64,000 nucleotides of DNA, taken from positions 14,681 to 78,680 of the forward strand of contig JAFUTV010000011.1 of NCBI GenBank assembly GCA_017484125.1, written 5' to 3'. Positions 17,304 through 54,490 of this stretch are shown in pieces. Source of the stretch: Bacilli bacterium (GTDB lineage Bacteria; Bacillota_I; Bacilli_A; RF39; UBA660). A program made the position numbers and the translations under genes. How positions within the stretch are numbered: position 1 is the stretch's first letter; the number at the start of each line of letters is the position of its first letter. The notes below the pieces were generated by a model. That model had not been told where the DNA came from. It saw nothing but the letters and a program-made list of their open reading frames with translations, and searched no databases.

Positions 17304-17330
17304 AATTAATATAATCTATTAGGTGATATA

Positions 17331-19238
17331 ATGTTTTGGCAAGATAAGCAAGTAAGAATAAGATTTGTTGTATTAATAATTACATTTTTAATAATTACTA
17401 TAATAGTTAAAGTATTTTATATTGAAGTATTTCAATATAAAAAGTTAAACTCTTTAGCTAGTGATTTATGGTCTAGAAATCTTCCTATAACTGCTGATCG
17501 TGGCAAAATATTAGATAGAAATGGTAAAATTTTAGCAGATAATATTACAACAACATCTCTTTATTTAATTCCAAATCAAATAAAAGAAAAAGAAAAAGTT
17601 ACTCAAGAACTTGCTAGTATTCTTAATGTAAGTTATGAAGAAATGAAAGAACATGTTTTTAAAAAAACTTCTTTGGAAAGGGTCCATCCAGAAGGCAGAC
17701 AATTATCATTTGAAATAGCAGATAAAATAAATGCATTAAACTATGATGGAGTATACTTATTAAAAGAATCTAAAAGATATTATCCATATAAGAATTTAAT
17801 GGCTCAAACACTAGGATTTGTTGGAATAGATAATCAAGGATTATCAGGTTTAGAACTTAAGTACAATGATTATTTAACTGGAACTAATGGCTCTATTAAA
17901 TATTATAGTGATGCTAAGGGAAATAAACTTCCTGTATCTGAAGAATATAAAGAAGCAGTATCAGGACTTGATCTTACCTTAACAATTGATTTAGATTTAC
18001 AACAAGCAGTTGAACGAGAACTTGATAATGTTGTATCTAAATATAGTCCTGAAGCAGCTTTAGCAATAGCTATGGATCCACAAAGTGGTGAATTACTTGC
18101 AATATCTTCTAGACCAAATTATAATCCCAATTCTTATCAAACAACATCTTTAGAAATATTAAATAGAAATCTTCCTATTTGGATGACGTATGAGCCTGGT
18201 TCAACAATGAAAATAACTACACTTGCAGCATCACTCAATGAAGGTGTAGTAAATTTATTTGAAGATAACTTTTATGATAAAGGCTCTATTGAAGTAGATG
18301 GAGCACATCTTCATTGTTGGAAAAGGGGAGGACATGGTCAAGAAACATATTTACAAGTAGTTGAAAATTCATGTAATCCAGGTTTTGTATCATTGGGTTT
18401 AAAACTAGGAAAAGATAGATTATTCTCTTATATTAAAAATTATGGATTTGGTGAAAAAACAGGTATTGATTTAATTGGAGAAGAAAACGGTATTATATTT
18501 GACTTAGATAAGATTGGTAATGTAGAATTAGCCACAACTGCATTTGGTCAAGGTATTTCTGTTACGCCTATACAACAGGTAAGAGCAGTATCTGCATCAA
18601 TAAATGGTGGTACACTATATAGACCATATATATTAAAAAATATAAGTGATTCAACAACCAAACAAATAGTATTGGAAAATTCTTCAGAAATTATTAGACA
18701 GGTAATAACTAAAGAAACATCAGATATGGTTAGATTTGCACTAGAGAGTGTTGTTTCAAATGGTACTGGAAGAAATGCTTATATTGAAAACTATCGAGTT
18801 GGAGGAAAAACAGGAACAGCACAAAAGGTTAATAATGGAAGATATATGGTGGGAAATTATATTGTTTCTTTTATTGGGTTTATGCCAGCAGATAACCCCA
18901 GTATTGTTGTTTATGTTGCTATAGATAATCCTAAAGGTGTTACTCAATATGGTGGTACAGTTGCAGCACCTGTTGCTAAGGCTATTTTAGAAAGTTATAT
19001 TAATATAAAAAAACTTCCGCCAGCAAGTGATTTAATGCCTAAAGTATATAATTGGAATGATATTAAATATCAAGTATTACCTGATGTTGTTGGAAAGTCA
19101 TTAGAAGAAGCAAAAAAAATATTAAAAGGTTATACATTAGAGTATTCTGGTCAAGGAAATAAAATAATACACCAATCTCCAAGTGCTGGACTTTATGTAG
19201 AAGATAATTCTACTGTTAAATTAATGTTATCAAATTGA
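17331..19238 (+). CDS. spoVD: Class B penicillin-binding protein (SpoVD/FtsI-like) with one PASTA domain
   Basis: STMK, SCN and KTGTA motifs and a C-terminal PASTA domain (VLPDVVGKSLEEAKKIL). It is followed by mraY, as in the Bacillus dcw cluster. Ends in TGA. Confidence 0.8.
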   Translation: MFWQDKQVRIRFVVLIITFLIITIIVKVFYIEVFQYKKLNSLASDLWSRNLPITADRGKILDRNGKILADNITTTSLYLIPNQIKEKEKVTQELASILNVSYEEMKEHVFKKTSLERVHPEGRQLSFEIADKINALNYDGVYLLKESKRYYPYKNLMAQTLGFVGIDNQGLSGLELKYNDYLTGTNGSIKYYSDAKGNKLPVSEEYKEAVSGLDLTLTIDLDLQQAVERELDNVVSKYSPEAALAIAMDPQSGELLAISSRPNYNPNSYQTTSLEILNRNLPIWMTYEPGSTMKITTLAASLNEGVVNLFEDNFYDKGSIEVDGAHLHCWKRGGHGQETYLQVVENSCNPGFVSLGLKLGKDRLFSYIKNYGFGEKTGIDLIGEENGIIFDLDKIGNVELATTAFGQGISVTPIQQVRAVSASINGGTLYRPYILKNISDSTTKQIVLENSSEIIRQVITKETSDMVRFALESVVSNGTGRNAYIENYRVGGKTGTAQKVNNGRYMVGNYIVSFIGFMPADNPSIVVYVAIDNPKGVTQYGGTVAAPVAKAILESYINIKKLPPASDLMPKVYNWNDIKYQVLPDVVGKSLEEAKKILKGYTLEYSGQGNKIIHQSPSAGLYVEDNSTVKLMLSN

Positions 19239-19324
19239 CAAAATAAAATGTAAAATAAATAATATTGTTATTAAATAATCTATTTAATTGTAGTATAATT
19301 AATTTAAGAGTTAGGAGAGATATT

Positions 19325-20314
19325 ATGCTTATTTTAGCTAAATCAGCAATGGCTTTAATGCTAGGATTTATTTTAGCAATTGTTGTTGGACTTATATTTA
19401 TTCCTTTAATGAAAAAAATAGGCGCTGGACAACAAGTTAGTCATTCATTAAAAAAACACTTAAAAAAAGAAGGAACACCAACAATGGGAGGATTTATTTT
19501 TATAATCCCAACTATTTTGGCTATATTATTTCTTTGGCTGTATGGATCTCTTGAAATAACATCCAATATCATTATTGTTGTATTCGTATTTATTTCATAT
19601 GCAGCATTAGGATTTGCAGATGATTATTTAAAAATAAGATATAAAAATAATGTTGGTTTATCTAGATTATTTAAACTACTTATTCAAACATTAATAGCAT
19701 TGATCTTTTTCTATATATTTATAAGACATGGTGGGGATCCAACAATTGAAATATCATTTTTAAATATCAATATTAATTTGGGATGGATTTATGGTTTATT
19801 CATATTATTTTTATTAGTTGGTACTAGTAATGCCGTAAATTTAACCGATGGTTTAGATGGACTTGCAGGTGGCCTTTCTGCAATTGCATTTTTGGCTTAT
19901 GGCTTAATTGCTTGGTCAACATCTTGGCTTGCCGGTTATACTGAAATTGCTATATTTTGTTTTATATTAGTTGGTTCTTTACTTGGATTTTTATTATTTA
20001 ATTCTCATCCAGCAAAGGTATTTATGGGTGATACTGGTTCAATGGCACTTGGTGCAACACTTGCTGCAATTGCAATATTAACACGTCATGAAATTTCTTT
20101 AGCAGTTATTGGTGGTGTATTTGTTATTGAAACACTATCAACATTAATTCAAATAATAGCTATTAGAAAATTTCATAAGAGAGTATTTAAAAAAGCACCT
20201 TTACATCATCATTTTGAAGAATTAGATTGGCAAGAAACAGATATTGTAAAACTATTTTGGGTAGTAGGTTTAACACTTGCTATGATAATGATTACATACG
20301 GCGTATGGTTATAA
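19325..20314 (+). CDS. mraY: Phospho-N-acetylmuramoyl-pentapeptide transferase
   Basis: KEGTPTMGG, NAVNLTDGLDGLA, GDTGSMALGA and PLHHHFE motifs. ATG 19325 has an AGGAGA RBS, so the track's upstream start is rejected. Confidence 0.95.
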   Translation: MLILAKSAMALMLGFILAIVVGLIFIPLMKKIGAGQQVSHSLKKHLKKEGTPTMGGFIFIIPTILAILFLWLYGSLEITSNIIIVVFVFISYAALGFADDYLKIRYKNNVGLSRLFKLLIQTLIALIFFYIFIRHGGDPTIEISFLNININLGWIYGLFILFLLVGTSNAVNLTDGLDGLAGGLSAIAFLAYGLIAWSTSWLAGYTEIAIFCFILVGSLLGFLLFNSHPAKVFMGDTGSMALGATLAAIAILTRHEISLAVIGGVFVIETLSTLIQIIAIRKFHKRVFKKAPLHHHFEELDWQETDIVKLFWVVGLTLAMIMITYGVWL

Positions 20315-20315
20315 T

Positions 20316-20341
20316 AAGAAGTCTATTAAGACTTCTTTTTT
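20316..20341 (+). terminator. Rho-independent terminator after mraY
   Basis: AAGAAGTCT / AGACTTCTT stem followed by a T run. Confidence 0.7.
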
Positions 20342-20367
20342 CATATTATTAATAAGGAGATAAACAC

Positions 20368-21468
20368 ATGAAAAAAATAAAGGATAATATTCTTCTTATA
20401 ACAACTATTTTATTATGTTTATTTGGAATAACAATGATTTACTCATCATCATATGTTTGGTCAATATATAAATTTAATAATCCATATAAATATTTAATAT
20501 CACAAGCTATATTTTTTATTGTAGGTTTAGTACTTATGTTCATATTAAAAAAAATTGATTATCATTTATATGAAAAACATGCCAATAAAATATTATTAGT
20601 ATGTATAATACTTTTAATACTTGTTCTAATACCTGGTGTTGGAAAAATAAGAAATGGATCTCGAAGTTGGTTTGGCTTTGGACCTTTTGGAATACAACCA
20701 TCAGAGTTTTCTAAGATAGGATTAATAATATTTGTATCAAAATATTTATCAAAAAATAATAAAGATATTAAAGATATAAAAAAAGGAATATTTCCAATTC
20801 TTAGTATTATTATTTTTTTCTTTTTTCTTATTATGTTAGAACCAGATTTTGGTCAGGGAATGGTTATTGTTTTATCTTTATTATTAATAATATTTGTTAG
20901 TGGTACAAAGTTATCATTTTTTATAAAGTGTTTTATCTTGGGATTACTTTGTATAATTGGACTTATTATAGTTGCTCCATATCGTATGGCAAGGATAGTA
21001 TCTTATTTAAATCCTTGGACAGATCCTTTAGGTAGTGGTTTTCAAATAATACAAAGTCTATATGCCATTGGCCCTTCAGGATTACTTGGCTCAGGATTAG
21101 GTAATTCAATACAAAAACACTTTTATTTACCAGAGCCACAAACAGATTTTATATTTGCAATTATATCTGAAGAATTTGGATTTTTAGGTATATTATTAAT
21201 AACATCGATGTTTATGATTATATTTTATAAATCAATAAAAATATCATTATCATCAAGTGATTTATTCAGTAAATATTTAGTATTTGGATTATCGTCTCAA
21301 ATTATTATTCAAGCAACACTTAATTTAGCAGTAGTAGTAGGACTAATTCCTGTAACTGGGGTTACTTTACCATTTATATCATATGGTGGATCATCACTTT
21401 TAGTAAGTTTGATGAGTATTGGAATAATACTAGGGATAGAAAAATCAAATAAAAAAACTGATTTTTAA
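20368..21468 (+). CDS. ftsW: SEDS-family peptidoglycan polymerase (FtsW/SpoVE-like)
   Basis: QPSEFSKI, PEPQTDFIFAIISEEFG and LPFISYGGSS motifs are present. Confidence 0.9.
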   Translation: MKKIKDNILLITTILLCLFGITMIYSSSYVWSIYKFNNPYKYLISQAIFFIVGLVLMFILKKIDYHLYEKHANKILLVCIILLILVLIPGVGKIRNGSRSWFGFGPFGIQPSEFSKIGLIIFVSKYLSKNNKDIKDIKKGIFPILSIIIFFFFLIMLEPDFGQGMVIVLSLLLIIFVSGTKLSFFIKCFILGLLCIIGLIIVAPYRMARIVSYLNPWTDPLGSGFQIIQSLYAIGPSGLLGSGLGNSIQKHFYLPEPQTDFIFAIISEEFGFLGILLITSMFMIIFYKSIKISLSSSDLFSKYLVFGLSSQIIIQATLNLAVVVGLIPVTGVTLPFISYGGSSLLVSLMSIGIILGIEKSNKKTDF

Positions 21469-25971: not shown

Positions 25972-28900
25972 ATGGATAGTGGTCTTATGAAAAAAAAGTC
26001 TGGATTTACATTAACAGAATTAATAGCAGTAATAGTTATATTAGGATTACTTGTAGCAATAGCAGTTCCAGTATATTTTAATGTAACAAAAAAAGCTAAA
26101 GAAAATGAATATGAGGCAAAAAAAGCATACATTGCAACTGTTGCAACAAGATATGCAGAAGAAAATAATGTTAACATAACTAATGCTTTTTCAGTTGCTA
26201 GATTAATTGCAAGTGGTTATATGTCTGCAGAAGACTATATTGATAGTGATTCTTCTCAAATTCCATTTATTGCTAATCCAACAAATGCAAATGATAATTT
26301 AGCATGTCATACTATATCAATAACAGTTGATAATTATGAATATAGTGCTACTGTAAATGATGATTCTGATTGTTCATTAATATCTGGAGATGAAGATGCA
26401 AAAGATTTTGGAATTAAAGCGTATAAATTAGAAGATAATAGTATTAAATCTGAAATATCATTTGAAAATTCAAATACTTTAAATTGGGTAAATACAGATG
26501 TAATTTTATTAATAAAACCAAATTATTCTAATATTTTGGAATCAATAATATCATACAATGGTGAAAGTAAAGAAATTAACTTTAATGATTCAAGTATTTG
26601 TAGTTCAGTGAAAATGGATTGTCCAAATGTTGTTATTTTAAGAGCAACAGCAATTTTAAAAACAGAAGTTTCAATATCTCTTAAACTAACTCAAAATGAT
26701 AATGAAACGAAATTATTAACAACACGAGTTGAAGTAAGAATTGATAAGGAAGTACCAACTGTAAATTTTGAAAAATATGATGGATGGACAGATGCTAATA
26801 AAGATACATTAATTTACGTATCTGATGGTAGTGGTTCTGGTCCAAAAGGCGTTTATGTTACTGATAATCAAGTTATGCCAAACAAAGAATGTACTGAAGC
26901 TAATAGATGTTATAAAATAGACGATAATAAAATTTCTGGAGCAGTTGCTGTACCAAATTTAACAGATAAACAATATTATTTATGGGGAATTGATAATGTT
27001 GATAATATATCCAGTGAATATGTTTTATTTGATGTTAATAATGTTGATAATGTTGCTCCAACATGTACAGTAGAGGGTGAAAATACCACCTGGAAAACTG
27101 GAAGTATAACTATAAAATGGGGATGTCGTGACTCAGAATCTGGTTGTAAAACTGGATATGATGGTTCATCAAAAGTTTATACTGAAACAGCTAAGCAAAT
27201 AACAATTCCATCATATGTAATAAAAGATAATGTTGGTAATGAAACAAATTGTCCTTCAAAAAATGTTAATGCATATATTGATAATGATCCACCAACATGT
27301 ACTAATACTCCAAGTTTTTCTGATTGGACTAGAGAAGATAGAACAATCACATGGGGATGTAGTGATAATGGTTCAGGCTGTGATCCAAGTTCTGGTGGTG
27401 GAAGCAAAATAATAAATACTACTATGGAAAAATATACTATTCCATCATATGTAATAAAAGATAATGTTGGAAATGAAACAAATTGTCCAAGCGTTACAAT
27501 AGATGTCAAAGTTGAAAAAAAGCCTTTAGATACAACCCCACCAACGTGTACACATACTTCAAATTTTTCTAATTGGACTAATCAAAATAGAACAATTACG
27601 TGGGGATGTAGTGATTCTGATTCGGGTTGTGATTCAAGATATAGTGGTGGAAGTAAAATAATAAACACTTCTATGGAAAAATATACTATCCCATCATATG
27701 AAATAAGAGATAATGATGGTAATATTACTCGTTGTCCAGCAGTTTCAGTTGATGTAAAGGTTGATAAAAATCCACCAACATGTGGAAATGCCACAGGAGG
27801 AAAAACATATTGGACAAAAAATCAATCAGTAAGTATCGGTGTAAATTGTAGCGATACAGGAAGTGGTTGTCAATATTCTAATTTTACAAGTTCAATATCT
27901 GGAAATGGAACAACACAATATACAGGAATAACAATAAGAGATAATGCTGGAAATACCACAACATGTTATAATACATATAATAAATACATAGATACTATTG
28001 CACCATCATGTGGTAGTGCTACAGGAGGAAAAACATACTGGACAAAAGATCAATCAGTGAGTGTTGGTGTAAATTGCAGTGATACAGGAAGTGGTTGTAA
28101 ATATTCTAATTTTACAAGTTCAATATCTGGTCATGGAAGAACATCATATATAGGAATAACAATAAAAGATAATGTTGGAAATACAGCTACATGTTATAAT
28201 ACCTATAATAAATATATAGATACAGTGCCACCATCTTGTACGACAACAGGTGGAGAAACTAATGCAACATCAAATTTAACAATTAGAGGAACTTGTAGTG
28301 ATTCAGATTCTGGTTGTTTATATTCTTCAGTAGCAACAACTGTTTATACATCTACATCATACAATCCTGGATGGTCATCGCCGGGAACTGTTTATGATAA
28401 TGTTAATAATTATACAACATGTCCAAGTACTTATTATTCATTTAAAGAATCCTGTGCATATACTGCAGGTAAATCTTGGTCAATAACAATAGATAATAAT
28501 TTTGTTATTCCTTGTAGTGGATCATATACAATCAAACTTTGGGGTGGTGCTGGTGGTTCTGATGATGAATCTCCAGGTGGAAAAGGAGCGTATATAAAAG
28601 TAACTGCTAAATTGAAAAAAAATTCCGTTGCGGCATTTATAATTGGGGGTGAAGGTGGATCATCAACATGGCAAGAAAAAATGAATGCTGGTGGTCATAA
28701 TGGTGGTGGAAACGCATATTGGTCTGGAGCTGGTGGTGGTCGTACCGAAGTCAGTATTGATGGTACCCTAGCAGCAGCCGCTGCTGGTGGAGGCGGTGGA
28801 ACATTTCATCTAGGACAAGCTGGTGGAGGAAGAGTTTCTACCAAGTCAGGAAATACAACTTCATCATGGAAAGGTGGTTCTACCAATACATACGTAGCTT

Positions 28901-29214
28901 ATGACTGTAATGCCGATGCTGGTGGAGGCGGTGCTGGATACAAACGTGGTGGAAAAAGAGGTATTTATGAGGAATGTAGTGGTGCAAGTACTGGATATGG
29001 CGGAATAAGTGGATATGAATCATCATTAGTTACAAAAGTTGAAGAAAAAGCAAGCAATAAAAGTGGAAATGGTAAAGCAGAAATAATACTTGATTCAATT
29101 GATTCATCATCAATAGGTGAAGAAATAATAATTGAGGATGATGGAAATGGCGAGGAAATAATAATTGAGGATGATGGAAATGGCGAGGAAATATTATTTG
29201 AGGATGCTGGATAA
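25972..29214 (+). CDS. Giant type IV pilin-like protein: prepilin-type N-terminus, six four-Cys modules, glycine-rich (ALK/LTK-type) domain and an acidic tandem-repeat tail
   Basis: KKKSG|FTLTELIAVIVILGLLVAIAVPVY is a class III (N-methylation) signal with Glu at +5. The repeats and glycine-rich domain are described in the findings. The start could be 25972 or ATG 25987. Confidence 0.85.
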   Translation: MDSGLMKKKSGFTLTELIAVIVILGLLVAIAVPVYFNVTKKAKENEYEAKKAYIATVATRYAEENNVNITNAFSVARLIASGYMSAEDYIDSDSSQIPFIANPTNANDNLACHTISITVDNYEYSATVNDDSDCSLISGDEDAKDFGIKAYKLEDNSIKSEISFENSNTLNWVNTDVILLIKPNYSNILESIISYNGESKEINFNDSSICSSVKMDCPNVVILRATAILKTEVSISLKLTQNDNETKLLTTRVEVRIDKEVPTVNFEKYDGWTDANKDTLIYVSDGSGSGPKGVYVTDNQVMPNKECTEANRCYKIDDNKISGAVAVPNLTDKQYYLWGIDNVDNISSEYVLFDVNNVDNVAPTCTVEGENTTWKTGSITIKWGCRDSESGCKTGYDGSSKVYTETAKQITIPSYVIKDNVGNETNCPSKNVNAYIDNDPPTCTNTPSFSDWTREDRTITWGCSDNGSGCDPSSGGGSKIINTTMEKYTIPSYVIKDNVGNETNCPSVTIDVKVEKKPLDTTPPTCTHTSNFSNWTNQNRTITWGCSDSDSGCDSRYSGGSKIINTSMEKYTIPSYEIRDNDGNITRCPAVSVDVKVDKNPPTCGNATGGKTYWTKNQSVSIGVNCSDTGSGCQYSNFTSSISGNGTTQYTGITIRDNAGNTTTCYNTYNKYIDTIAPSCGSATGGKTYWTKDQSVSVGVNCSDTGSGCKYSNFTSSISGHGRTSYIGITIKDNVGNTATCYNTYNKYIDTVPPSCTTTGGETNATSNLTIRGTCSDSDSGCLYSSVATTVYTSTSYNPGWSSPGTVYDNVNNYTTCPSTYYSFKESCAYTAGKSWSITIDNNFVIPCSGSYTIKLWGGAGGSDDESPGGKGAYIKVTAKLKKNSVAAFIIGGEGGSSTWQEKMNAGGHNGGGNAYWSGAGGGRTEVSIDGTLAAAAAGGGGGTFHLGQAGGGRVSTKSGNTTSSWKGGSTNTYVAYDCNADAGGGGAGYKRGGKRGIYEECSGASTGYGGISGYESSLVTKVEEKASNKSGNGKAEIILDSIDSSSIGEEIIIEDDGNGEEIIIEDDGNGEEILFEDAG
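27055..28455 (+). repeat. Six tandem coding repeats of about 76-83 codons (module boundaries 27055, 27289, 27538, 27772, 28000, 28228)
   Basis: Each module follows (A/P)P(T/S)C ... C(S/R)D(S/T/N)xSGC ... D(N)xGN ... C. By my hand alignment, modules 4 and 5 are identical at 62 of 76 residues. Confidence 0.85.
29116..29211 (+). repeat. Three copies of a 33-nt direct repeat encoding GEEIIIEDDGN (last copy diverged)
   Basis: Units start at ggt 29116, ggc 29149 and ggc 29182. The second and third begin with the identical ggcgaggaaata. Confidence 0.9.
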
Positions 29215-37920: not shown

Positions 37921-38418
37921 ATGAAAATATTGAATAGATCAATTATTAGATATACAATTTCTTTAATAATATTTATCGGTGTTTTAATTGGATTAACAGT
38001 ATTTATAACTATAAAAATTATTGAAGATAATATTCATAAAACTTATCAAGATAATGGTTTTATAATTGATATTAATCCAAAAATTAATAAAAAATTAGAT
38101 AAACAATTAGATATTGACGGTATTTATTCTCCATTTAATATTATTAATTTAACTAATAATGGTAAAAAAAGAAAATATCAAATAGTATTAACTCCAATAA
38201 ATAATAGTGATGCTAATATAAGAGTATCAGTAAATAATGTATTAATAAGATATTTAAATAATTTTGATAAAGTTGATGATGGCTATTTGTTATATGAAAA
38301 TTATTTAAATGAACATTATAGTATTTCACATCAAATAAGAGTATGGCAATCAATTAATAGTGTAGTGGATAATATTACAGTCAATTTTAATTTAAAAGTA
38401 AATATTTTAGATGAATAA
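37921..38418 (+). CDS. N-terminally anchored secreted protein of unknown function, upstream of a pseudopilin gene
   Basis: One TM helix and then a beta-rich domain (FNIINLTNNGKKRKYQIVLTP), the same architecture as ORF 24548-25045. Confidence 0.55.
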   Translation: MKILNRSIIRYTISLIIFIGVLIGLTVFITIKIIEDNIHKTYQDNGFIIDINPKINKKLDKQLDIDGIYSPFNIINLTNNGKKRKYQIVLTPINNSDANIRVSVNNVLIRYLNNFDKVDDGYLLYENYLNEHYSISHQIRVWQSINSVVDNITVNFNLKVNILDE

Positions 38419-38495
38419 ATATACCATTCATCTTTTTTTTATGGTATTATTATAATAGATAGATATAAAAAGTAAGATGATAAAGGGTGATAGTC

Positions 38496-39053
38496 ATGAA
38501 TAAAGTAAGTAAAGGAACTACTTTAGTAGAAATAATGGTTAGTGTCATGTTAATTGCTGTAGTACTAGTTTTTATATTTAATATTTTAGTTGATTTAAAA
38601 GCTGAAAAAGAACTATCTACTAAAAGAAGCGAAGATGCTATTGAAAGAGCTTCATATACTAGGATAATTCAAAATGACTTTATTAATTATGGCTTAAAAA
38701 AAATTAGTAGTTGTACAAGTGGATTAATTTGTTATGATTTTGAATACAACAATGACTTAAAAAAAAGATTAGTAATATTTGATACTTATGTTGTTTATGA
38801 TGATGAAAAGTGGGTAATATCAACTGGAACTTATAAGAAAAATGCCGCTAAATTTTGTTATACAAATGTATTTGATAATAGTAAAATAACTACAGAAATG
38901 AAAAATGATAGTACAGTTAAGAATTACCATGTTTTAAAATTGATAGTACCAGTAACAAAAAATATTTCATCCAATAGAAAATATGATATAGAATTAACTA
39001 ATATTAGTGAAAGTCCAGTTGAAATTTCTGGCATAACAATAAAATGTGATTAA
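38496..39053 (+). CDS. Prepilin-type N-terminal cleavage/methylation domain protein (pseudopilin)
   Basis: MNKVSKG|TTLVEIMVSVMLIAVVLVFIF has Gly at -1, Glu at +5 and a hydrophobic helix. AAGGGTGA RBS precedes ATG 38496. Confidence 0.7.
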   Translation: MNKVSKGTTLVEIMVSVMLIAVVLVFIFNILVDLKAEKELSTKRSEDAIERASYTRIIQNDFINYGLKKISSCTSGLICYDFEYNNDLKKRLVIFDTYVVYDDEKWVISTGTYKKNAAKFCYTNVFDNSKITTEMKNDSTVKNYHVLKLIVPVTKNISSNRKYDIELTNISESPVEISGITIKCD

Positions 39054-41882: not shown

Positions 41883-43580
41883 ATGATGAAAAAATATTTA
41901 TATTTGGTTATGATCTTATTTTTTATGATAATTTTTATGCAAAGTGTTAGTGCAGAAAATTTTAGTAGGGAATCTATTCCTGATATATATTATAAGATAA
42001 ATTTTGATGATAAAGAGAAAATAATTCAGGCTGCTTTTATTAAAGATAGTAATAATAACATATTTTATAGTATTAATCCATTTGATGAACTTGGATTTAA
42101 TTATGTTAAATATTTTAATAATTACGACTTATTAGGGTTACATCAGGAAACATTTGAATATATAAATGCTTTAGCTTATTATGGATATAATTATGGGTCT
42201 AGAACTAAAGATATAGATTATGTTATAACACAGTTATTAATATGGAAAAATATTTTTCCTAACGCTAAAATAGTATTAACCAGTTCTATTGATGGTGAAG
42301 AAATAACAACATATAACAGTAAAATTAAAAGTGTAAATAGAGCTGTAGAAAGATATATTCCTATTTCTAAAGAACATACTATTGAAGTTAATTCTTCAAG
42401 GCCTTTATTTATAAAATATTTATTAGATTATGAAGAAGTATTAACTGATGGCTTAGAAATCGATGAAGGAGGTAGAATAAATTTAGTAGAAAAGTTTAAT
42501 AATACAAAAACATATCAAATTGCTCAAGGATACGAAAATAGTATGGAATTCTACTTATCAAACAATTACGTATCTTTATTTAGAGCAATAAATTTACCAA
42601 GAATAATTAATAATTATAATATAATTTCTTTATCTAGTAGATTAAATATTAATTTTAACAATATAAATGATTATAAAGAAGATGTGTTATTTGAAAATGT
42701 ATATGGTATTTATAATAACAACAATGAATTAATAGAAAAAATAGTAATAACAGATAATAATTATTCTATAGATTTAGATTATGGTAATTATTATCTTAAA
42801 CAAATTGAATGTGGTTTAAATTGTAAGGAAGATTTAAATATTTATGAATTTGAAATTAATGGTGAAGAACTAAATTTATCAATTAATATAGAAAATGATC
42901 AATTAATTGATGAAACTATTGATAATAATATAAATAGTATTAAAACTAATAATTTGGATAAAGAAGATACTATTTATAATCCAAATAATGAAATTGCCAA
43001 AGAAACCAATATCAAAGAAATCATAACTAATAAAGTAGTAAAACAAGGCGAACAAAAAGAATTAAAAGAAAACAAGAAGATTGAAAAAATAAAACCAATA
43101 GTACCAAAATATGATATTAATATTTATGTAAGTGATATTAATGGTAAAAATATAAAAGATTCTAAAATTTGCTTATATAATTCTAATAAAGAATTAATAA
43201 GATGTGGTAATACAAATAAATATGGAAAAGTATTGTTTAAAAACAATAATTCCGAGGTATATTATTTAAAACAAGAAAATGTCTCTAATAATTATAAATT
43301 AAATAAAGTCGTTGAAAAAATTAATTTATTAGAAAATAAAAGTATCTATTTAATTAATTATTTAAAAGAGAATAAAAATAAATACTTTAAAAAGAAAGAA
43401 TCAAATTCATTAATAGTTCCATTATTAAATGAGGAGAAAATAGATGATTTTAAAATTAATGATAATCAAATACCAGTATTAGATACTAATATAGAAGATA
43501 TTAATACTACTTCTTTTATAATTACAGTTCTATTTATGATTATTGTTATTACTAAATATTATGTCAAAAAAAATAATTAA
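41883..43580 (+). CDS. Secreted adhesin-like protein: thioester-domain-like N-terminus (Cys position is Ser), SpaA/CnaB-like beta domains and a C-terminal TM + basic tail
   Basis: Signal peptide ending SVSA|EN. YSIN (S63) and LAYYGYNYG...ITQLLIW (Q117). YGKVLFKNNNSEVYYLKQENVSNNYKLN is prealbumin-like. The tail reads TSFIITVLFMIIVITKYYVKKNN. Confidence 0.55.
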   Translation: MMKKYLYLVMILFFMIIFMQSVSAENFSRESIPDIYYKINFDDKEKIIQAAFIKDSNNNIFYSINPFDELGFNYVKYFNNYDLLGLHQETFEYINALAYYGYNYGSRTKDIDYVITQLLIWKNIFPNAKIVLTSSIDGEEITTYNSKIKSVNRAVERYIPISKEHTIEVNSSRPLFIKYLLDYEEVLTDGLEIDEGGRINLVEKFNNTKTYQIAQGYENSMEFYLSNNYVSLFRAINLPRIINNYNIISLSSRLNINFNNINDYKEDVLFENVYGIYNNNNELIEKIVITDNNYSIDLDYGNYYLKQIECGLNCKEDLNIYEFEINGEELNLSINIENDQLIDETIDNNINSIKTNNLDKEDTIYNPNNEIAKETNIKEIITNKVVKQGEQKELKENKKIEKIKPIVPKYDINIYVSDINGKNIKDSKICLYNSNKELIRCGNTNKYGKVLFKNNNSEVYYLKQENVSNNYKLNKVVEKINLLENKSIYLINYLKENKNKYFKKKESNSLIVPLLNEEKIDDFKINDNQIPVLDTNIEDINTTSFIITVLFMIIVITKYYVKKNN

Positions 43581-44055
43581 GTTATGTTTACTTTTAATTG
43601 TATTTGTGCTATTAATAAGCATATTTATTAAATTCAATAATACTTATCATAAAATAGTTAATATAAATTCTTATATTGATAATGAAAAATCTTCTAATAT
43701 ATCTGGTTATTTAAAAATTGATCAAATAAATTTATTAGAAGTTATTAATAATATAGATTCTAATCTAAATAGTTTAAATAATGGTTTAATGTTATATTAT
43801 TTAAATCCATTTGTAATATTGGGACATTCTGGAACTGGTAAAACAGCTTTATTTAATGATTTAAAATTATTAAAATTAAATGATACTTTTGAATTTAGCT
43901 ATAATAAGACTATTTATAATTATAAAATAATAAAGATTTATAAAAAAAATAAAAAAGATTATTTAACATTAGAAGGTGACATTATTCTTGTTACTTGTCT
44001 TAAAAATGATAATAATAAACAATTAGTTTTAGTAGGACAAAAATTGAATTTTTGA
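43561..44055 (+). CDS. Small sortase-like transpeptidase (His and Cys present, conserved Arg not found)
   Basis: N-terminal TM, ILGHSG (His), IILVTC (Cys), but no Arg downstream (LKNDNNKQLVLVGQKLNF). It overlaps the 3' end of the adhesin gene by 20 nt. Confidence 0.6.
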   Translation: MSKKIIKLCLLLIVFVLLISIFIKFNNTYHKIVNINSYIDNEKSSNISGYLKIDQINLLEVINNIDSNLNSLNNGLMLYYLNPFVILGHSGTGKTALFNDLKLLKLNDTFEFSYNKTIYNYKIIKIYKKNKKDYLTLEGDIILVTCLKNDNNKQLVLVGQKLNF

Positions 44056-48207: not shown

Positions 48208-49473
48208 ATGTTTGTAGATGAAATCATAGTAAAATTAATTGCAGGAAATGGTGGAGATGGATGCACTTCTTTTCATCATGAAAAAGCTATGCCAAATCTT
48301 GGACCAGATGGTGGTAATGGTGGAAGAGGTTCCAATATTATTTTTGAAGTTGATAAAGGTTTAAAGACTCTTGTAGATTTAAGATACCATAAAATAATAA
48401 AGGGTGATAAAGGAACAAATGGTAAGGGTAGTGATAGAACTGGGGCTAATGCTGAAGATATTATTATTAAAGTTCCGCAAGGTACAACTATTACTGATAT
48501 GAAAACTAATCAAGTTATTTGCGATTTAATAAATGATAAGGAACAGTTTATTGTGGCTAAAGGTGGAAGAGGAGGAAAAGGTAATGCTGCTTTTGCAACA
48601 CATGATAATCCTGCTCCAAGAATGTCAGAAAATGGTGAACCAGGTGAAATAAAAGAAGTAAAATGTGAATTGAAAGTATTAGCTGATATTGGTCTTGTTG
48701 GATTACCTTCAGTTGGAAAATCTACCATTTTATCAGTAATAAGTGCATCAAAGCCTAAAATAGCAGCTTATCATTTTACTACCTTAAATCCTAATTTAGG
48801 TGTAGTAAAGCTAAAGGATGGACGTAGTTTTGTCATGGCTGATCTTCCTGGATTAATTGAAGGTGCTAGTGAAGGATTAGGATTAGGTTTAAAATTTTTA
48901 CGTCATGCTTCAAGAACAAAAGTTATTGCTCATGTAGTTGATATGGGTGCACAAGAAGGAAGAAATCCAATTGATGATTTTAAAATCATTCAAGGTGAAA
49001 TAGAAAAATATGGTCATGGTCTTGATAGAAAGAGTTTAGTAGTAATTGCTAATAAAATGGATTTACCAGATGCTAAAGATAATTTGGATGAATTTATTAA
49101 AGAATATCCTGATTTAAAAATAATTCCAATTAGTGCATTTTCTTTAGAAGGTGTAGAAGAATTAGTTATAAAATTAGCCGATATATTAGGAAGTATTAAG
49201 GAAGAAGAAATAACTCCAAGTGTTGATGAAGTAGTATACAAATTTGAAGATAAACTTCCATTTACTATTGAAAAAACAAGTGATGGCTGGATTTTAAAAG
49301 GTGATAAAATTACGAAACTTTTCAAAATGACTAAATTTAATGAAGATGAAAGTGTTATGAGATTTGCTAAAAAATTAAAAGCAATGGGTGTTGAAGAAGA
49401 ATTAGAACGCCTTGGAGCTTCAAGAGGCGATGATGTAATTATTGAAGATTTTGTATTTCAATTTAAAGATTAA
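48208..49473 (+). CDS. obg: GTPase Obg
   Basis: Gly-rich Obg fold (AGNGGDGCTSFHHEK, GPDGGNGGRG), G-domain GLPSVGKST, DLPGLIEGAS and NKMD motifs, plus a C-terminal OCT domain. Confidence 0.95.
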   Translation: MFVDEIIVKLIAGNGGDGCTSFHHEKAMPNLGPDGGNGGRGSNIIFEVDKGLKTLVDLRYHKIIKGDKGTNGKGSDRTGANAEDIIIKVPQGTTITDMKTNQVICDLINDKEQFIVAKGGRGGKGNAAFATHDNPAPRMSENGEPGEIKEVKCELKVLADIGLVGLPSVGKSTILSVISASKPKIAAYHFTTLNPNLGVVKLKDGRSFVMADLPGLIEGASEGLGLGLKFLRHASRTKVIAHVVDMGAQEGRNPIDDFKIIQGEIEKYGHGLDRKSLVVIANKMDLPDAKDNLDEFIKEYPDLKIIPISAFSLEGVEELVIKLADILGSIKEEEITPSVDEVVYKFEDKLPFTIEKTSDGWILKGDKITKLFKMTKFNEDESVMRFAKKLKAMGVEEELERLGASRGDDVIIEDFVFQFKD

Positions 49474-49497
49474 AAAGTCTTATTTTAAGACTTTTTT
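49473..49497 (+). terminator. Rho-independent terminator after obg
   Basis: AAAAGTCTTA / TAAGACTTTT stem followed by a T run. Confidence 0.75.
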
Positions 49498-49518
49498 CTT
49501 TATCTATAATTAAACTTA

Positions 49519-49527
49519 TGTTATAAT
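49519..49527 (+). promoter_or_regulatory. Extended -10 element (TGtTATAAT) ahead of the Tad-like operon
   Basis: TG at 49519-49520 and TATAAT at 49522-49527. I saw no good -35 element. Confidence 0.35.
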
Positions 49528-49552
49528 TATTAATAATAAGGGATTGGTTAGT

Positions 49553-50335
49553 ATGGCAAGTTTAAGAAAAAGCAAAAGCATATTAATTACTTCAACTAAA
49601 GGCGGAGTAGGTAAATCGATATTTACTCTTAACTTGGCTGGTATTTTTTCGACAATTGAAAAAAAAGTATTAATTATTGACCTAGATTTAACATCTGGTA
49701 TTATTGCTATGGCTTTAAATAAACCATATAACAAATCCATTTATGAAATGAGTGAAGATATTAAAAATAATGTTTTTGATGAATTTGAAAATTATGTTTT
49801 AAAATATAATAATTATATTGATTGCATAGCTTGCCCAAAAGATCCAAGAGATGCTTCTAAAATTGATTTAAGATATGTTGATATGATAATTAATCAAGCA
49901 TATTTTAAATATGATGTAATATTAATAGATACAAACCATAATTTAAGTCCTATTAATTTGTTTTTAATGGATAAAATTGATGAGATTTTATTTGTTGTAA
50001 ATAATGATCCTTTAAATTTAAAAAGTAATAGATCATTGATTTCTATATTAAACAATATAGGTATAAATAATTATCATGTGTTATTAAATAATTCTAATAA
50101 TCCATATAAAGATTACTTTTCTATGTATGATATAAAAAATATATTACAAGCAAATGTTGATTATACTTTATCAAATACTTTCTATATAGAAAATATTGAT
50201 AAACTAATTATGGCTGGTGATATTGTAACATTATCTAATGATATAGCAAGAATATATAATAAAGATTATACTAGTTTAATGAATATTGCTATGGATTTAA
50301 CTAACCAAGGAAGTGATATAGATGGCAAGAAATAG
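49553..50335 (+). CDS. ParA/MinD-superfamily ATPase (TadZ/CpaE-like)
   Basis: Deviant Walker A TSTKGGVGKS, then LIIDLDL and VILIDTNH. First gene of a Tad-like cluster. ATG 49553 is preferred over TTG 49544. Confidence 0.7.
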   Translation: MASLRKSKSILITSTKGGVGKSIFTLNLAGIFSTIEKKVLIIDLDLTSGIIAMALNKPYNKSIYEMSEDIKNNVFDEFENYVLKYNNYIDCIACPKDPRDASKIDLRYVDMIINQAYFKYDVILIDTNHNLSPINLFLMDKIDEILFVVNNDPLNLKSNRSLISILNNIGINNYHVLLNNSNNPYKDYFSMYDIKNILQANVDYTLSNTFYIENIDKLIMAGDIVTLSNDIARIYNKDYTSLMNIAMDLTNQGSDIDGKK

Positions 50336-51611
50336 TTTAATTAAAGAATTTAATTACGAATTAAATTTTGATTATAATCAAAATGATTTAAATAACGTGT
50401 TTAAAAATAAAGAAGAACTTGACATATTACGAAAAAACATTTTAGGAGAATTGGGAAGTTTATCTTATGCTAATGAAAAGATTACTAAAGAATTAATATT
50501 AGATGTAATCTCTAATAAAACTAAAGGATATAATTTATCTAATTTAGAAAGAAATCATCTATATAATGTTATTAATGAAGAAATAAGTGGATATGGTCCA
50601 TTATCATCACTTCTTAAAGATCCAAATGTTGAAGAAATAATGGTTAATTCATATAATGAAATTTATGCATTAGTTGATGGTAATATTATTAGGGATACAT
50701 CACTATCTTTTATTAATAATGAACATGTTATGCGTACTATTAAAAAGATGTTGTCTTCAACAAATATCATTATTGATTCTTCTAAAGTGATTGAAACAAC
50801 TTTACCTGATGGATCTTTTTTAAGCGTTATACTTCCTCCGATATCTAAAAGGGGACCTATTTTAAGTATTAAAAAATTTAATCCAATGGTAAGCAATATA
50901 GATGAATTAATAAAATTAGGTACATTAACACCTTATATGGCTAGATTTTTAGATGCTGCAATCAAAGCAAAATTAAATATTATTGTTACTGGTGGCTCTA
51001 AATCAGGTAAAACTTCATTACTATCTGCTTTAGCAAATATTGGAAAAGATAATTCAAGATTAATTACAATATCTGATAATGAAGATTTAAATATTAATAA
51101 AGAAAATGTTGTTCATCTAACAAAAAATGAAAATATTATAAAAACAGCATTAAATATTTATCCCAATACTTTAATAATTAATAATTTAACTTCTGATTTA
51201 GTTGCTGATAGTATTGATGTTATGATAGATAATTCAATTAATGTATTAGAATCTACTAAGTCCAATAATGCCTTGGAGGTAATCAACTTTTTGGAAACAT
51301 CTTATTGTGAAGCAAAAGGATTATCTTCTAAAATAGCAAGAGAAACATTATATAATGCAGTTGATTTAATTGTTACTATTTCTAAATTATCAGATAATAA
51401 ACATCGAATTACTTCTATATTAGAATTAAATAAAAATAATAATAATGCAATTGTATTAAAAGAAATATTTGCATTTAAAACTAAAGGATTACTCGATAAT
51501 GGTAGTGTTAATGGTGAGTTTATTATGTATAACTATAGACCTAGAGCATATCGTAAAATTAAACGTCAAAATATTGATTCTATAGATGATATATTTGAAA
51601 ATATTAAATAA
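50322..51611 (+). CDS. CpaF/TadA-family secretion ATPase homologue with degenerate catalytic motifs
   Basis: GYGPLSSLLKDPNVEEIMVNS, TTLPDGSFLSVILPPIS and Walker A VTGGSKSGKTSLL are present, but the Asp box, Walker B and His box are not conserved (see finding). Confidence 0.7.
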   Translation: MARNSLIKEFNYELNFDYNQNDLNNVFKNKEELDILRKNILGELGSLSYANEKITKELILDVISNKTKGYNLSNLERNHLYNVINEEISGYGPLSSLLKDPNVEEIMVNSYNEIYALVDGNIIRDTSLSFINNEHVMRTIKKMLSSTNIIIDSSKVIETTLPDGSFLSVILPPISKRGPILSIKKFNPMVSNIDELIKLGTLTPYMARFLDAAIKAKLNIIVTGGSKSGKTSLLSALANIGKDNSRLITISDNEDLNINKENVVHLTKNENIIKTALNIYPNTLIINNLTSDLVADSIDVMIDNSINVLESTKSNNALEVINFLETSYCEAKGLSSKIARETLYNAVDLIVTISKLSDNKHRITSILELNKNNNNAIVLKEIFAFKTKGLLDNGSVNGEFIMYNYRPRAYRKIKRQNIDSIDDIFENIK

Positions 51612-51622
51612 AGGGGAATAAT

Positions 51623-52603
51623 ATGAAACAGTTAATAATTCAATTATTAATTATATTTATTATTATAATTATCTTTTATAATATTGTTAGAATAATTAGA
51701 ACTAATAGCAAAGAAAAAAGAATTAGTGAATTTTCACTATCTAAAAAAGATTTTAATGAAAATAGTATACTTGAAAGATTTAACTTAATAATTTGGAATA
51801 TAATTCATAATATAAGTAACATATTAAGTAGAAGTAATTTATTTTTAAAAAAAGCAATAAAATATGAAAAGTATATATTAATTAAAGAAGAAAAATATAA
51901 GAGTTCAATTGATTATGTAACTATTAAATATTTAAATATAATTTTAGCTATTACTCTATATTTTTTAATTATTTTATTATTTACATTAAAATTCAATATT
52001 TTTATTTTAATTATATTTATAATACTTGGTCTATTTCTCCCAGATTTTTTATGGAAGTTATCATATATTAATAAATGTAAGAATATTTCATCAAGATTAT
52101 ATGAATCTATAATTATATTAGATGACAATATTTCTAAATCTAACATATATAATTCTATTAATAAAGTTATTAATGAAAGTAGTGAAGAAATATCAGATGA
52201 ATATCAAAGAATATTTAACGATCTTTCTTATAACTTAACATTATACCAAGCTTTTAAAAGATTTTATGAAAGAACCAAAATTCCTGAAATAAAAACAATA
52301 TATCATTTATTGAATGTAGAACAAGATAATATTGAAAAAACATTTCATTTAATTAGAAAAGAATTTGAATATATTGATAAACAAAATGATTATAAACATA
52401 ATACAAATATAATATTAAATGTGCTTAGTAGTGTTTTTGTTCTCATTCCATTATTACTTATTATTTTTATAACTATTATTAATCCTGATTATTTTAAATT
52501 GGTTATTTCTTCATTATTTGGAATAGTAATATTAATTGTTATTGAATTGTTATATATTGCATTAATATTTTCTATAAGGCGTGTTTTGGAGGAAAGAAAA
52601 TGA
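51623..52603 (+). CDS. Type II secretion system F-family membrane protein (TadB-like)
   Basis: N-terminal TM, a cytoplasmic helical T2SSF-like domain (ISDEYQRIFNDLSYNLTLYQAFKRFYERTKIPEIK) and C-terminal TMs. Confidence 0.6.
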   Translation: MKQLIIQLLIIFIIIIIFYNIVRIIRTNSKEKRISEFSLSKKDFNENSILERFNLIIWNIIHNISNILSRSNLFLKKAIKYEKYILIKEEKYKSSIDYVTIKYLNIILAITLYFLIILLFTLKFNIFILIIFIILGLFLPDFLWKLSYINKCKNISSRLYESIIILDDNISKSNIYNSINKVINESSEEISDEYQRIFNDLSYNLTLYQAFKRFYERTKIPEIKTIYHLLNVEQDNIEKTFHLIRKEFEYIDKQNDYKHNTNIILNVLSSVFVLIPLLLIIFITIINPDYFKLVISSLFGIVILIVIELLYIALIFSIRRVLEERK

Positions 52604-53289
52604 GTGGTATTAAAAAGATTTTTAGTAAAAAATATATAACAAAATATGAAGAAAAAATAAAGTATTTGGGTCCAAATAATAAAATTAGTTTAGAAAACTT
52701 TTTATTAACAAGATTATTTTTATCAATTGTATTGTTAATTATATGTCTTATCATTCCTAAATATGGCTTAATTCTTGCTATTATTGTAGCTATTTCGTTT
52801 TATTATTTATATACTAGTATTTTAATTGATAATAAAATTAGAATAAGAAATGATAAGTTATATGATGAAGCTATTTTATTTTTTAATATGTTAAAACTAT
52901 CTTATGATAAAACAAAAGATATTAAAACATCTTTAGAAATAGTATCAAATAAATTAGGAAATTCTATATCCATAACATTTAGAAAAGTATTAAAAAACAA
53001 TCGATATAACAATGATTTAAAAGAAGTGTTTTCAAAAGTAATAGAAACTATTCCTAACAAGGATGTAAAAAATGCATTAGTGGATTTAAAGGAATGTAAT
53101 AATTATTATGATTGTTTAGAAAGAATTACAGAAAATCTTAAAGATAAAAATGTCGTTATATTAAAGAGTAAATATCAATTTAAGCCCATCATATTAGTAT
53201 TTGTCTCTTTAGTATTTATAAGCATTATTTGTATATTACTATTTAATATTTATGATATTATTAATTATTTAAATAGTTTATTTGTATAA
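52600..53289 (+). CDS. Type II secretion system F-family membrane protein (TadC-like)
   Basis: Same architecture as the preceding gene (KTSLEIVSNKLGNSISITFRKVL ... VKNALVDLKE). Its start overlaps the stop of the previous gene. Confidence 0.55.
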   Translation: MSGIKKIFSKKYITKYEEKIKYLGPNNKISLENFLLTRLFLSIVLLIICLIIPKYGLILAIIVAISFYYLYTSILIDNKIRIRNDKLYDEAILFFNMLKLSYDKTKDIKTSLEIVSNKLGNSISITFRKVLKNNRYNNDLKEVFSKVIETIPNKDVKNALVDLKECNNYYDCLERITENLKDKNVVILKSKYQFKPIILVFVSLVFISIICILLFNIYDIINYLNSLFV

Positions 53290-53337
53290 AATTAAGTCCT
53301 TTTAACCAATATAAGAGTTAGAAAGGATTTTTTATTT

Positions 53338-54114
53338 ATGAGCAAATATAGTGTAGAAATAACTGGTATTAATACTAATAATTTAACTGTATTATCTAAT
53401 GAAGAAATGACTAAATTATTTAATGATTTAAGAAATGGTGATAAAAGTGCTAAAGAAAAATTAGTTACTGGTAATTTAAAATTAGTGTTAAGTATTTTAA
53501 GAAAAATTAATAATAATAAATATAATTTAGATGATTTATTTCAAATTGGAGTTGTAGGGTTAGTTAAAGCCGTAGATAATTTTGATTTATCTTTTAATTG
53601 TCTATTTTCAACTTATGCAGTTCCTTTAATTTCAGGAGAAATTAAAAGATATATAAGAGATTTTACTTCAATTAGAATTAGTAGGGGAATTAAAGATAAT
53701 GCATATCAAATATTAAAATATAAAGATGAATATGAAAAAAAGTATGGAATAGAACCAACAAATGAAGAAATTTCAAATTCTTTAGATATGTCTGATTATG
53801 ATATAAAATTAGCTCTTGATTCTTTAAGAGAGCCAATGAGTATATATGATCCGATATATTCTGATCAAGGTGATACAATTTATTTATGTGACCAAATAGC
53901 AGATAATAAAAATAAAAATGATGAAAAAGATGATTTAATTGCTTTAAGAAAAGCTTTAGAACATATAAAACAAAGGGAAAGAAAAGTTTTAGAAGATAGA
54001 TATATAATAGGTAAAACTCAAACTGAAATTGCAGAAAATTTAAAAATATCTCAAGCACAAGTATCAAGAATTGAAAAAAATGCTATTGTCAGTTTAAAAA
54101 GATTATTGAAATAA
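53338..54114 (+). CDS. sigG: Forespore late sigma factor sigma-G
   Basis: MSKYSVEITGINTNNLTVLSNEEMTKLF...GDKSAKEKLVTGNLKLVLS is colinear with B. subtilis SigG (MSRNKVEICGVDTSKLPVLKNEEMRKLF). FSTYAVPLISGEIKRYIRD and ISQAQVSRIEK are also present. Confidence 0.85.
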   Translation: MSKYSVEITGINTNNLTVLSNEEMTKLFNDLRNGDKSAKEKLVTGNLKLVLSILRKINNNKYNLDDLFQIGVVGLVKAVDNFDLSFNCLFSTYAVPLISGEIKRYIRDFTSIRISRGIKDNAYQILKYKDEYEKKYGIEPTNEEISNSLDMSDYDIKLALDSLREPMSIYDPIYSDQGDTIYLCDQIADNKNKNDEKDDLIALRKALEHIKQRERKVLEDRYIIGKTQTEIAENLKISQAQVSRIEKNAIVSLKRLLK

Positions 54115-54265: not shown

Positions 54266-54490
54266 ATGAAACTATCAGATTTACAAGAAAAGGATGTAGT
54301 TAATGTTAATGATGGAAGAAATGTAGGTAGAATAATAGATGCACAAATAGATGAAAGTGGAAAGATAAACTACTTAGTGGTAGATACTAAAAAAGGTATC
54401 AGGGGATTTTTTTCATCATATCAAGAACTAACAATCACATTTGATAAAATAAAAAGAATTGGAACTGATGTTATTTTAGTTGATTTATGA
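54266..54490 (+). CDS. ymxH: YlmC/YmxH-family PRC-barrel sporulation protein
   Basis: LSDLQEKDVVNVNDGRNVGRIIDAQID..GKINYLVV. The 74-aa length fits the family. Confidence 0.85.
   Translation: MKLSDLQEKDVVNVNDGRNVGRIIDAQIDESGKINYLVVDTKKGIRGFFSSYQELTITFDKIKRIGTDVILVDL

Follow-up and report, generated by a model that had tools for sequence, protein, structure and literature searches.

What does a Tad/Flp-like gene set without a pilin gene do directly upstream of a sporulation sigma factor gene? The question arises from a 64,000-nucleotide (nt) stretch of DNA from an uncultured Bacilli bacterium (contig JAFUTV010000011.1, positions 14,681 to 78,680; hereafter the window), in which four genes at 49553-53289, here called the module, precede a gene that most likely encodes sigma-G. 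An earlier model-made reading of the letters, made without database searches (the sequence-only reading), had taken the module for a stripped-down Tad machine rather than a pilus and had linked it to sporulation. The first proposal was borne out: the pilin genes are missing and the catalytic residues of the motor protein are mostly lost. The second is unsupported. We favor, with some reserve, an account in which the module is a degenerate Tad derivative conserved as a non-motor membrane complex, its gene order beside sigG being inherited.

The four open reading frames (ORFs) were recovered exactly where the sequence-only reading had placed them, with the junctions that it described: a 14-nt overlap, an 11-nt gap and a 4-nt overlap, followed by 48 nt to the sigma factor gene at 53338. 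The genes are as follows.

49553..50335, + strand: TadZ/CpaE-like MinD/ParA ATPase, single domain, motifs intact (Pfam AAA_31, CbiA, ParA)
50322..51611, + strand: CpaF/TadA-like predicted pseudo-ATPase, P-loop kept, catalytic residues lost (sequence and fold)
51623..52603, + strand: divergent TadB-like T2SSF-family polytopic membrane protein (homology, profile-profile comparison)
52600..53289, + strand: divergent TadC-like T2SSF-family membrane protein (BLASTP to the TadC of locus L007)

All four proteins are true homologues of TadZ, CpaF/TadA, TadB and TadC. Their nearest intact relatives are encoded by flp-tadE-tadE'-tadZ-tadA-tadB-tadC operons of sister Bacilli (loci L006, L007, L019 and L020, from metagenome-assembled genomes (MAGs) or metagenome contigs). 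These canonical loci encode Flp with a G/QALVEY motif (RGQALVEY) and an intact CpaF, in which every motif is present in L019; in L006, TadE and TadE' are present and flp is not annotated. Identity to the L007 proteins was 45% for TadZ, 43% for CpaF, 30% for TadB and 29% for TadC, and the corresponding values for L019 were 53%, 42%, 33% and 31%. The TadZ motifs KGGVGK[ST], DLDL, PKDPR and ILID[TS] vary little or not at all across degenerate and canonical members. The ParA/MinD-like and CpaF/TadA-like calls made from the letters were upheld by Pfam, NCBIfam, PDB sequence and fold matches. The T2SSF call for the two membrane proteins held only by way of homology to PF00482-bearing TadB and TadC proteins: direct Pfam and NCBIfam scans of the TadB-like and TadC-like proteins gave nothing usable and no T2SSF match of their own. 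Specifically, the TadB-like protein reached PF00482-bearing proteins with E-values down to 7e-39, and an hhalign comparison of its clade with canonical TadB gave 100% probability and an E-value of 1e-47 over 323 columns. The TadC-like protein matched the PF00482-bearing TadC of L007 in BLASTP (E 2e-26, 29% identity). A PDB profile search using the TadB-like alignment found nothing.

The CpaF-like protein has kept the fold of its family and has lost most of its catalytic residues, a degeneration on which the sequence-only reading was silent. By sequence, the protein matched CpaF in the PDB (E 8e-41) and the NCBIfam TadA family TIGR03819 (128 bits, E 3e-37, under the equivalog cut-off). An AlphaFold2 model, with a mean predicted local distance difference test score (pLDDT) of 80.7, returned the CpaF structures 8RJF, 9E24 and 8RKD as its top Foldseek matches, with E-values of ~1e-33 to 1e-34 (CpaF top, 2e-34). 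Using Caulobacter CpaF as the reference, we mapped eight active-site residues onto the window protein.

K287 of Caulobacter CpaF, K230 of the window protein: kept
E312 of Caulobacter CpaF, D255 of the window protein: conservative change
R217 of Caulobacter CpaF, T160 of the window protein: lost
R223 of Caulobacter CpaF, F166 of the window protein: lost
R347 of Caulobacter CpaF, N278 of the window protein: lost
E357 of Caulobacter CpaF, N288 of the window protein: lost
R359 of Caulobacter CpaF, T290 of the window protein: lost
H382 of Caulobacter CpaF, K313 of the window protein: lost

Replacement is non-conservative at six of the eight positions, and a 12-residue segment is deleted from the window protein. 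In Caulobacter CpaF, the phosphates and Mg are contacted by E312, R217, R223, R347, R359 and H382, and the E357A substitution alone abolishes function (PMC11300603).

These losses extend across the clade. Walker A (GGSKSGKTS) is retained in all 49 sequence clusters (P0086-P0134); the His box and R359 are missing from every one of them, together with 9-12 residues of the 12-residue segment. Clade A, which makes up most of the CpaF-like clade and includes the window protein, has also lost the Walker B Asp and Glu, with PNTLIINNL in place of the canonical PDRIIVGEVRG. The replacement motifs PNTLIINNL and DNSINVLETTKANNA are themselves conserved. Clade B (L004, L017 and L018) retains the Walker B Glu and both Asp-box glutamates, which argues that the CpaF-like protein decayed in two steps. 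Based on the residues kept and lost, the protein probably binds nucleotide without hydrolyzing it.

The module genes are under purifying selection. The ratio of nonsynonymous to synonymous substitution rates (dN/dS) between L010 and L011 was 0 for tadZ, 0.07 for the cpaF-like gene and 0.09 for the tadB-like gene, and none of the eight module loci has a broken reading frame. Clade-A CpaF-like proteins are 71-80% identical to one another, roughly as conserved as SigG. Among the canonical loci, CpaF is the slowest-evolving of the proteins (71% identity versus 45-49% for TadZ). Between the CpaF-like proteins and canonical CpaF, identity was 42-48%, an inversion of this rate order. This pattern is consistent with rapid change that later came under new constraint.

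The surroundings of the module point to its origin. In L019 and L020, the tad genes lie downstream of obg, and in the window and L018 the module follows obg directly. Because the module follows obg as these operons do, it is probably the positional orthologue of a Tad pilus operon that lost three pilin genes. Searches for pilins and peptidases covered the 64-kb window and flanks of ≤10 kb of the orthologous loci. A tblastn search of the window and six orthologous loci with the Flp, TadE and TadE' proteins of L006 and L007 gave no match to any of the three, and a scan of the same loci for class-III signal peptides near the module was likewise negative; both searches recovered their controls. 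The Flp-type pilin that the sequence-only reading had failed to see in or around the module was thus not found by these means either. The TadV/CpaA peptidase, which it had also reported missing, remained so: no Peptidase_A24 match occurred among the scanned membrane proteins of the window. Within the canonical sister loci, tadV is absent as well. Given the absence of pilin genes and the loss of most catalytic residues of the motor, the module is unlikely to build a pilus alone. In L007 (7906-8226, − strand), L019 (4581-4910, − strand) and L020 (5502-5831, − strand), a divergently oriented DUF192 gene adjoins flp on its upstream side; the degenerate modules have none.

The start of the module carries the following features.

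49472..49500, + strand: intrinsic-terminator-like hairpin and T-run ending the obg transcript (dG −9.8 kcal/mol, z −3.0)
49517..49527, + strand: sigma-A-type extended −10 promoter TATGTTATAAT, matching TRTGnTATAAT, with TGnTATAAT conserved
49538..49547, + strand: 5' leader and ribosome-binding site (RBS) AAGGGATTGG of the tadZ-like gene, conserved

The terminator and the extended −10 element that had been read ahead of the module are therefore both in place. A rule-based terminator scan missed this AT-rich hairpin because its stem has too few G-C pairs; the AT-rich hairpin before sigG, described below, was missed by the same scan. The TGnTATAAT sequence lies 34-35 nt before the tadZ-like start (46 nt in L017) at all eight loci, and AAAGGGTTGG or AAGGGATTG is kept in the leader of every module-bearing locus. 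The genes farther upstream differ among loci and include obg, rpsU-yqeY and a PedC-like gene, among others. The same extended −10 promoter type occurs ahead of obg and uvrC in the window and ahead of the canonical L006 operon. Regular expressions for sigma-E, sigma-F, sigma-G, sigma-K and sigma-H motifs matched nothing within 200 nt upstream of the module at the eight loci, and the one Spo0A-box-like match, in L017, is not conserved. These features suggest that a conserved sigma-A-type promoter of its own drives the module, with putative start sites just downstream of the −10 element.

The sigma factor gene has regulatory signals of its own.

53284..53313, + strand: sigma-F/G-type promoter GTATA-N18-CAATATA, conserved; its −35 overlaps the tadC-like stop codon
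53294..53330, + strand: hairpin and U-run, ~13 pairs with one bulge; −10 in the loop, sigG RBS in the 3' arm
53338..54114, + strand: SigF/SigG-family sporulation sigma factor, most likely sigG (best NCBIfam matches are SigG equivalogs)
54266..54490, + strand: YlmC/YmxH sporulation protein (TIGR02888, 77.5 bits versus a 44.2-bit cut-off)

The original sigG call stands insofar as SigG models score best, at 323 and 300 bits compared with 248-253 bits for SigF models; it falls short insofar as both scores lie below the NCBIfam cut-offs of 372 and 457 bits. Downstream of sigG, the order ylmC-lspA-rluD-rhomboid was found in every relative in which the genes could be located, and in Bacillus subtilis lspA, rluD and the rhomboid gene likewise follow sigG-ylmC. 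As for the gap between module and sigG, in which the sequence-only reading had seen no terminator and no obvious sigma-F or sigma-G promoter, it holds both GTATA-N18-CAATATA and a hairpin with a U-run. A regular expression for G[T/A]ATA-N18-CA..[A/T]T[A/T], with its spacing fixed, matched the seven module-bearing loci examined and the module-less L015; in the module-less L013 and L016, the close variants GAATA-N18-CATAAAT were read by eye. The stricter form of the promoter has two matches in 128 kb (both strands of the window).

In the window, the hairpin has a dG of −11.1 kcal/mol and a z of −2.95. In eight other loci, module-less ones included, it has ~13-15 bp, with dG of −12 to −22 and z of −3.4 to −6.0. 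The arrangement, in which the promoter spacer and −10 form the 5' arm and loop, the RBS lies in the 3' arm and a U-run follows, was present in nine of ten loci; the element was seen in the window, L003, L004, L009, L010, L013, L015, L016 and L018. Misaligned hairpin arms in the MAFFT alignment limited RNAalifold to a 7-pair core of weak energy, and single-sequence folding was the informative approach. The hairpin resembles a terminator, and in read-through transcripts it would mask the sigG RBS, whereas transcripts from the predicted start site of sigG's own promoter would lack the 5' arm. With its own forespore-type promoter and an RBS-trapping hairpin, sigG appears insulated from any upstream gene. 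In B. subtilis, an equivalent hairpin acts against translation of spoIIG read-through transcripts (PMC5942855), and in Clostridioides difficile sigG is preceded by a distant sigma-A promoter and, immediately ahead of the gene, by a forespore promoter (PMC7438776). The promoter-in-hairpin element described here extends the Bacillus regulatory device to a distant, uncultured lineage.

The order of module and sigG is conserved, as a synteny check proposed in the sequence-only reading established: the module precedes sigG at all eight module-bearing loci with enough flank (the window, L003, L004, L009, L010, L017, L018 and L022). Scans of genome and metagenome contig collections yielded four module loci in genome contigs and three in metagenome contigs and found no cultured host; this scarcity may mean that the family is rare or that the search patterns were narrow. 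The related genome records found were all MAGs, labelled Erysipelotrichaceae, Bacillota or "Tenericutes", and the carriers form a clade of low-GC, spore-forming, uncultured gut and rumen Bacilli; the G+C content of the window is ~19-31% in 2-kb windows. The juxtaposition is not always immediate. In L004, dgkA lies between module and sigG, and in L018 the interval holds a surface protein gene and dgkA. In the module-less relatives L013, L015 and L016, whose SigG proteins are about equally similar, priA or other genes precede sigG, never spoIIGA-sigE. L013 has GerQ, YunB and sigG, with the module absent at the locus. L015, which likewise keeps sigG with the module absent there, nests inside the module-bearing clade in a neighbor-joining tree of five flanking proteins that has no bootstrap support; this placement indicates secondary loss or relocation of the module. 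The best reading of the position beside sigG is inherited gene order.

Two of these loci yielded further observations. L015 and L004, which belong to two related genomes of one sample, Joint Genome Institute (JGI) metagenome 3300059061, share the order polA, cation-efflux (czcD-type), mutM ... dgkA ... sigG; only L004 carries the Tad remnant, and the two form a natural presence/absence pair for comparative work. The L018 insert (9731-11597), between the module and dgkA-sigG, encodes a membrane-anchored protein with an ALK_LTK glycine-rich domain and has its own terminator and promoter. We considered this protein as a possible pilin substrate, its domain being shared with the large pilin-like protein of the window described below, and dropped it on account of its ordinary N-terminal anchor and those separate signals.

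Taken together, the data make the following history somewhat the better bet. In the common ancestor of the clade, three pilin genes would have been deleted from a flp-tadE-tadE'-tadZABC operon after obg, and the remaining four genes would have come to stand ahead of the sigG-ylmC-lspA-rluD block. The CpaF-like protein would then have lost its catalytic machinery in two steps while keeping its fold and P-loop, and it is probably now a nucleotide-bound ring on TadB/TadC that neither extends nor retracts a pilus. The residual membrane complex would comprise a TadZ with intact motifs, a hydrolysis-dead CpaF-like ring and two fast-evolving TadB/TadC platform proteins. Such a complex, if it assembles as the homologies suggest, could act as a scaffold, a positioning device or a sensor rather than as a filament motor.

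Several points weigh against this history. The loss of hydrolysis is deduced solely from sequence, and the clade-B proteins may have some weak activity left, as they keep the Walker B and Asp-box glutamates. Two orphan pilin-like genes, at 25972 and 38487, lie in the window. The genome beyond its 64 kb may hold genes for Flp/TadE, a prepilin peptidase, a second ATPase or a comG-type system. The unbroken order of module and sigG, despite differing upstream neighbors, could reflect selection rather than inertia. Finally, "scaffold or sensor" is a weak and non-specific statement of function.

The two pilin-like genes are as follows. The first (25972-29214, + strand) encodes a 1080-residue protein with a type IV pilin signal peptide (KKKSG/FTLTE), a Pfam N_methyl match above the cut-off, repeated Cys-rich modules and a C-terminal ALK_LTK glycine-rich domain, the same domain as in the L018 insert. 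The second (38487-39053, + strand) is a 188-residue pilin-like ORF (KG/TTLVE) with an N_methyl score just under the cut-off; it sits between ysxE-like and ylbJ-like sporulation genes and adjoins a gene for a small membrane protein of unknown family (37921-38418). No PilB, PilC, PilD or ComG genes were seen in the 64 kb.

Genes of this kind raise the question of whether the module still belongs to a working type IV filament system whose pilins, peptidase and perhaps active ATPase are encoded elsewhere, with the CpaF-like ring as an adaptor or regulatory subunit. The orphan N-methyl proteins could be its substrates. We consider this unlikely, while recognizing that strong purifying selection on the module genes would be expected of such a system, that the window does encode two class-III signal-peptide proteins with no assembly genes nearby, and that an unlinked peptidase would be normal in this group because the canonical sister loci also lack tadV. 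However, Flp and TadE were not found in the 64 kb or in any flank, and the pilin-like proteins of the window are of the G/FTLxE (type IVa/Com) kind, not Flp. The T2SSF signature of TadB and TadC has decayed past Pfam detection, and the window ORFs, most of which were assigned by eye and some against Pfam and NCBIfam, showed no sign of a second T2SSE ATPase.

A sporulation-dedicated complex, in which the Tad remnant would have been drafted into forespore or mother-cell processes, for example to replace SpoIIIAA and SpoIIIAB in the SpoIIIA-SpoIIQ channel on which sigma-G activity depends, is quite improbable on the present evidence. Its appeal lies in the constancy of the module-sigG order while the upstream neighbors change, and in the sporulation genes of the hosts. 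SpoVD of the window scores above its equivalog cut-off, as does YlmC; SpoVE scores just under its cut-off and is the best match for its ORF; SpoVK, YsxE and YlbJ are the best matches of theirs; and L017 has GerA and GerAC genes. In addition, there are spore-forming Erysipelotrichia without spoIIIAA to spoIIIAG (bioRxiv 10.1101/2022.02.25.481979), and a sigma-A promoter ahead of the unit preceding sigG parallels PspoIIG of B. subtilis and C. difficile (PMC7438776). The regulatory data run the other way. No sporulation-sigma motif was found in the 200 nt ahead of the module at the eight loci, the Spo0A-box-like match is confined to L017, and the promoter type is that of obg, uvrC and the canonical L006 pilus operon. 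The sigG promoter and hairpin also occur where there is no module, the nested L015 and L013 keep sigG with none at the locus, and dgkA, or dgkA plus a surface protein gene with its own terminator, can stand between the two. The proteins fit no better: SpoIIIAA and SpoIIIAB families were absent from the Pfam and NCBIfam matches of the four proteins (E ≤ 0.01), and the CpaF-like ATPase has lost most of its catalytic residues, whereas SpoIIIAA reportedly needs its Walker motifs to function. The analogy with SpoIIIAA drawn in the sequence-only reading is therefore a poor one if the ATPase is hydrolysis-dead as predicted. Nor did its functional link to sigG and sporulation find support, given the module's own sigma-A-type promoter, the insulation of sigG and the absence of the module from the L015 locus. 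We found no paper linking sporulation, sigG and CpaF.

A variant of this idea, a long shot in our estimation, is that the Tad platform was exapted as a nucleotide-gated, non-motor sporulation complex in small-genome relatives of the Erysipelotrichia, whose cultured spore formers have no SpoIIIAA to SpoIIIAG. If so, it might act as a polar or septal organizer via TadZ or stand in for the cytoplasmic and platform components that the feeding-tube channel lacks, and a sporulation role would explain why the module is locked to sigG.

That the four genes are decaying, functionless remnants of a lost pilus system is hardly credible: pilin genes, catalytic residues and the detectable T2SSF signature have indeed all gone, but pseudogenisation was rejected on the dN/dS values of 0-0.09 for tadZ, cpaF and tadB (L010 versus L011), the frames are intact at eight loci, the clade-A CpaF-like proteins and their substituted motifs are conserved, and so are the promoter, leader and overlapping junctions.

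Elsewhere in the window, positions 6447-21468 hold a fragmentary division and cell-wall cluster, mraZ-rsmH-ftsL-pbp ... spoVD-mraY-spoVE, whose assignments were mostly made by eye. Between pbp and spoVD are genes for vWA-like, TelA-like and SpoVK-like AAA proteins, which are unrelated to the cluster, and murD, murG, ftsQ, ftsA and ftsZ are absent from the window according to the same mostly visual assignments. At 41883-44055 (+ strand), the gene for a surface protein with a SpaA-type fold precedes one for a small sortase, and the pair may specify a sortase-dependent pilus or adhesin.

Comparison with known systems places the module, as a degenerate Tad derivative, closest in content to the Tad/Flp pilus (L006, L007, L019 and L020; CpaF structures 8RJF, 8RKD and 9E24). 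The two have in common the tadZ-tadA-tadB-tadC order, the protein sizes, full-length homology of all four proteins, a sigma-A-type promoter, an upstream obg and the CpaF fold. The module thus has a protein of the TadA/CpaF family and fold, two T2SSF platform proteins and a ParA-like TadZ/CpaE protein. It differs in that flp and the tadE-like genes are missing, and in that the CpaF-like protein does not have the motor's set of Walker B Glu, Arg fingers and His box. Downstream of the module lies the sigG block, compared with yebC or feoAB downstream of the canonical loci.

Like the module, the SpoIIIAA/SpoIIIAB pair joins a member of the secretion-ATPase superfamily to GspF-like membrane proteins, and both are found near sporulation genes of spore formers. 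However, the best match of the module's ATPase is TadA/CpaF, its catalytic residues are lost, no sigma-E motif lies within the 200 nt upstream, and TadZ and two platform proteins stand in place of SpoIIIAC-AH. The spoIIG-sigG region of B. subtilis and C. difficile offers a different parallel. There, as here, a sigma-A-driven unit directly precedes sigG, which has its own forespore-type promoter and a large RBS-covering hairpin that forms only on read-through transcripts (PMC5942855, PMC7438776). In the present lineage, a Tad remnant stands where spoIIGA-sigE would be, relatives have priA or other genes there, and a Spo0A box is not conserved. The module bears on how spore-forming Erysipelotrichia manage without most of SpoIIIA, and the present evidence makes no link between the two.

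The PilT/VirB11 superfamily ATPases of secretion and pilus systems are commonly regarded as obligate motors. Among type IV filament machines, archaellum FlaH and Aggregatibacter TadZ are partners that bind nucleotide without hydrolyzing it; they have a P-loop and lack the hydrolysis residues. FlaH and this TadZ act alongside an active motor, and their systems still build a filament, whereas here the motor itself is degenerate and no filament genes are linked. The degenerate variant of the Tad system described here is new; it probably forms a non-motor membrane complex, and a role in sporulation, unsupported at present, may yet apply. It would be a natural case of a type IV filament platform kept, clade-wide, for a job other than a filament, and compared with the canonical Tad motor it provides a defined set of substitutions for probing a CpaF ring unable to hydrolyze ATP.

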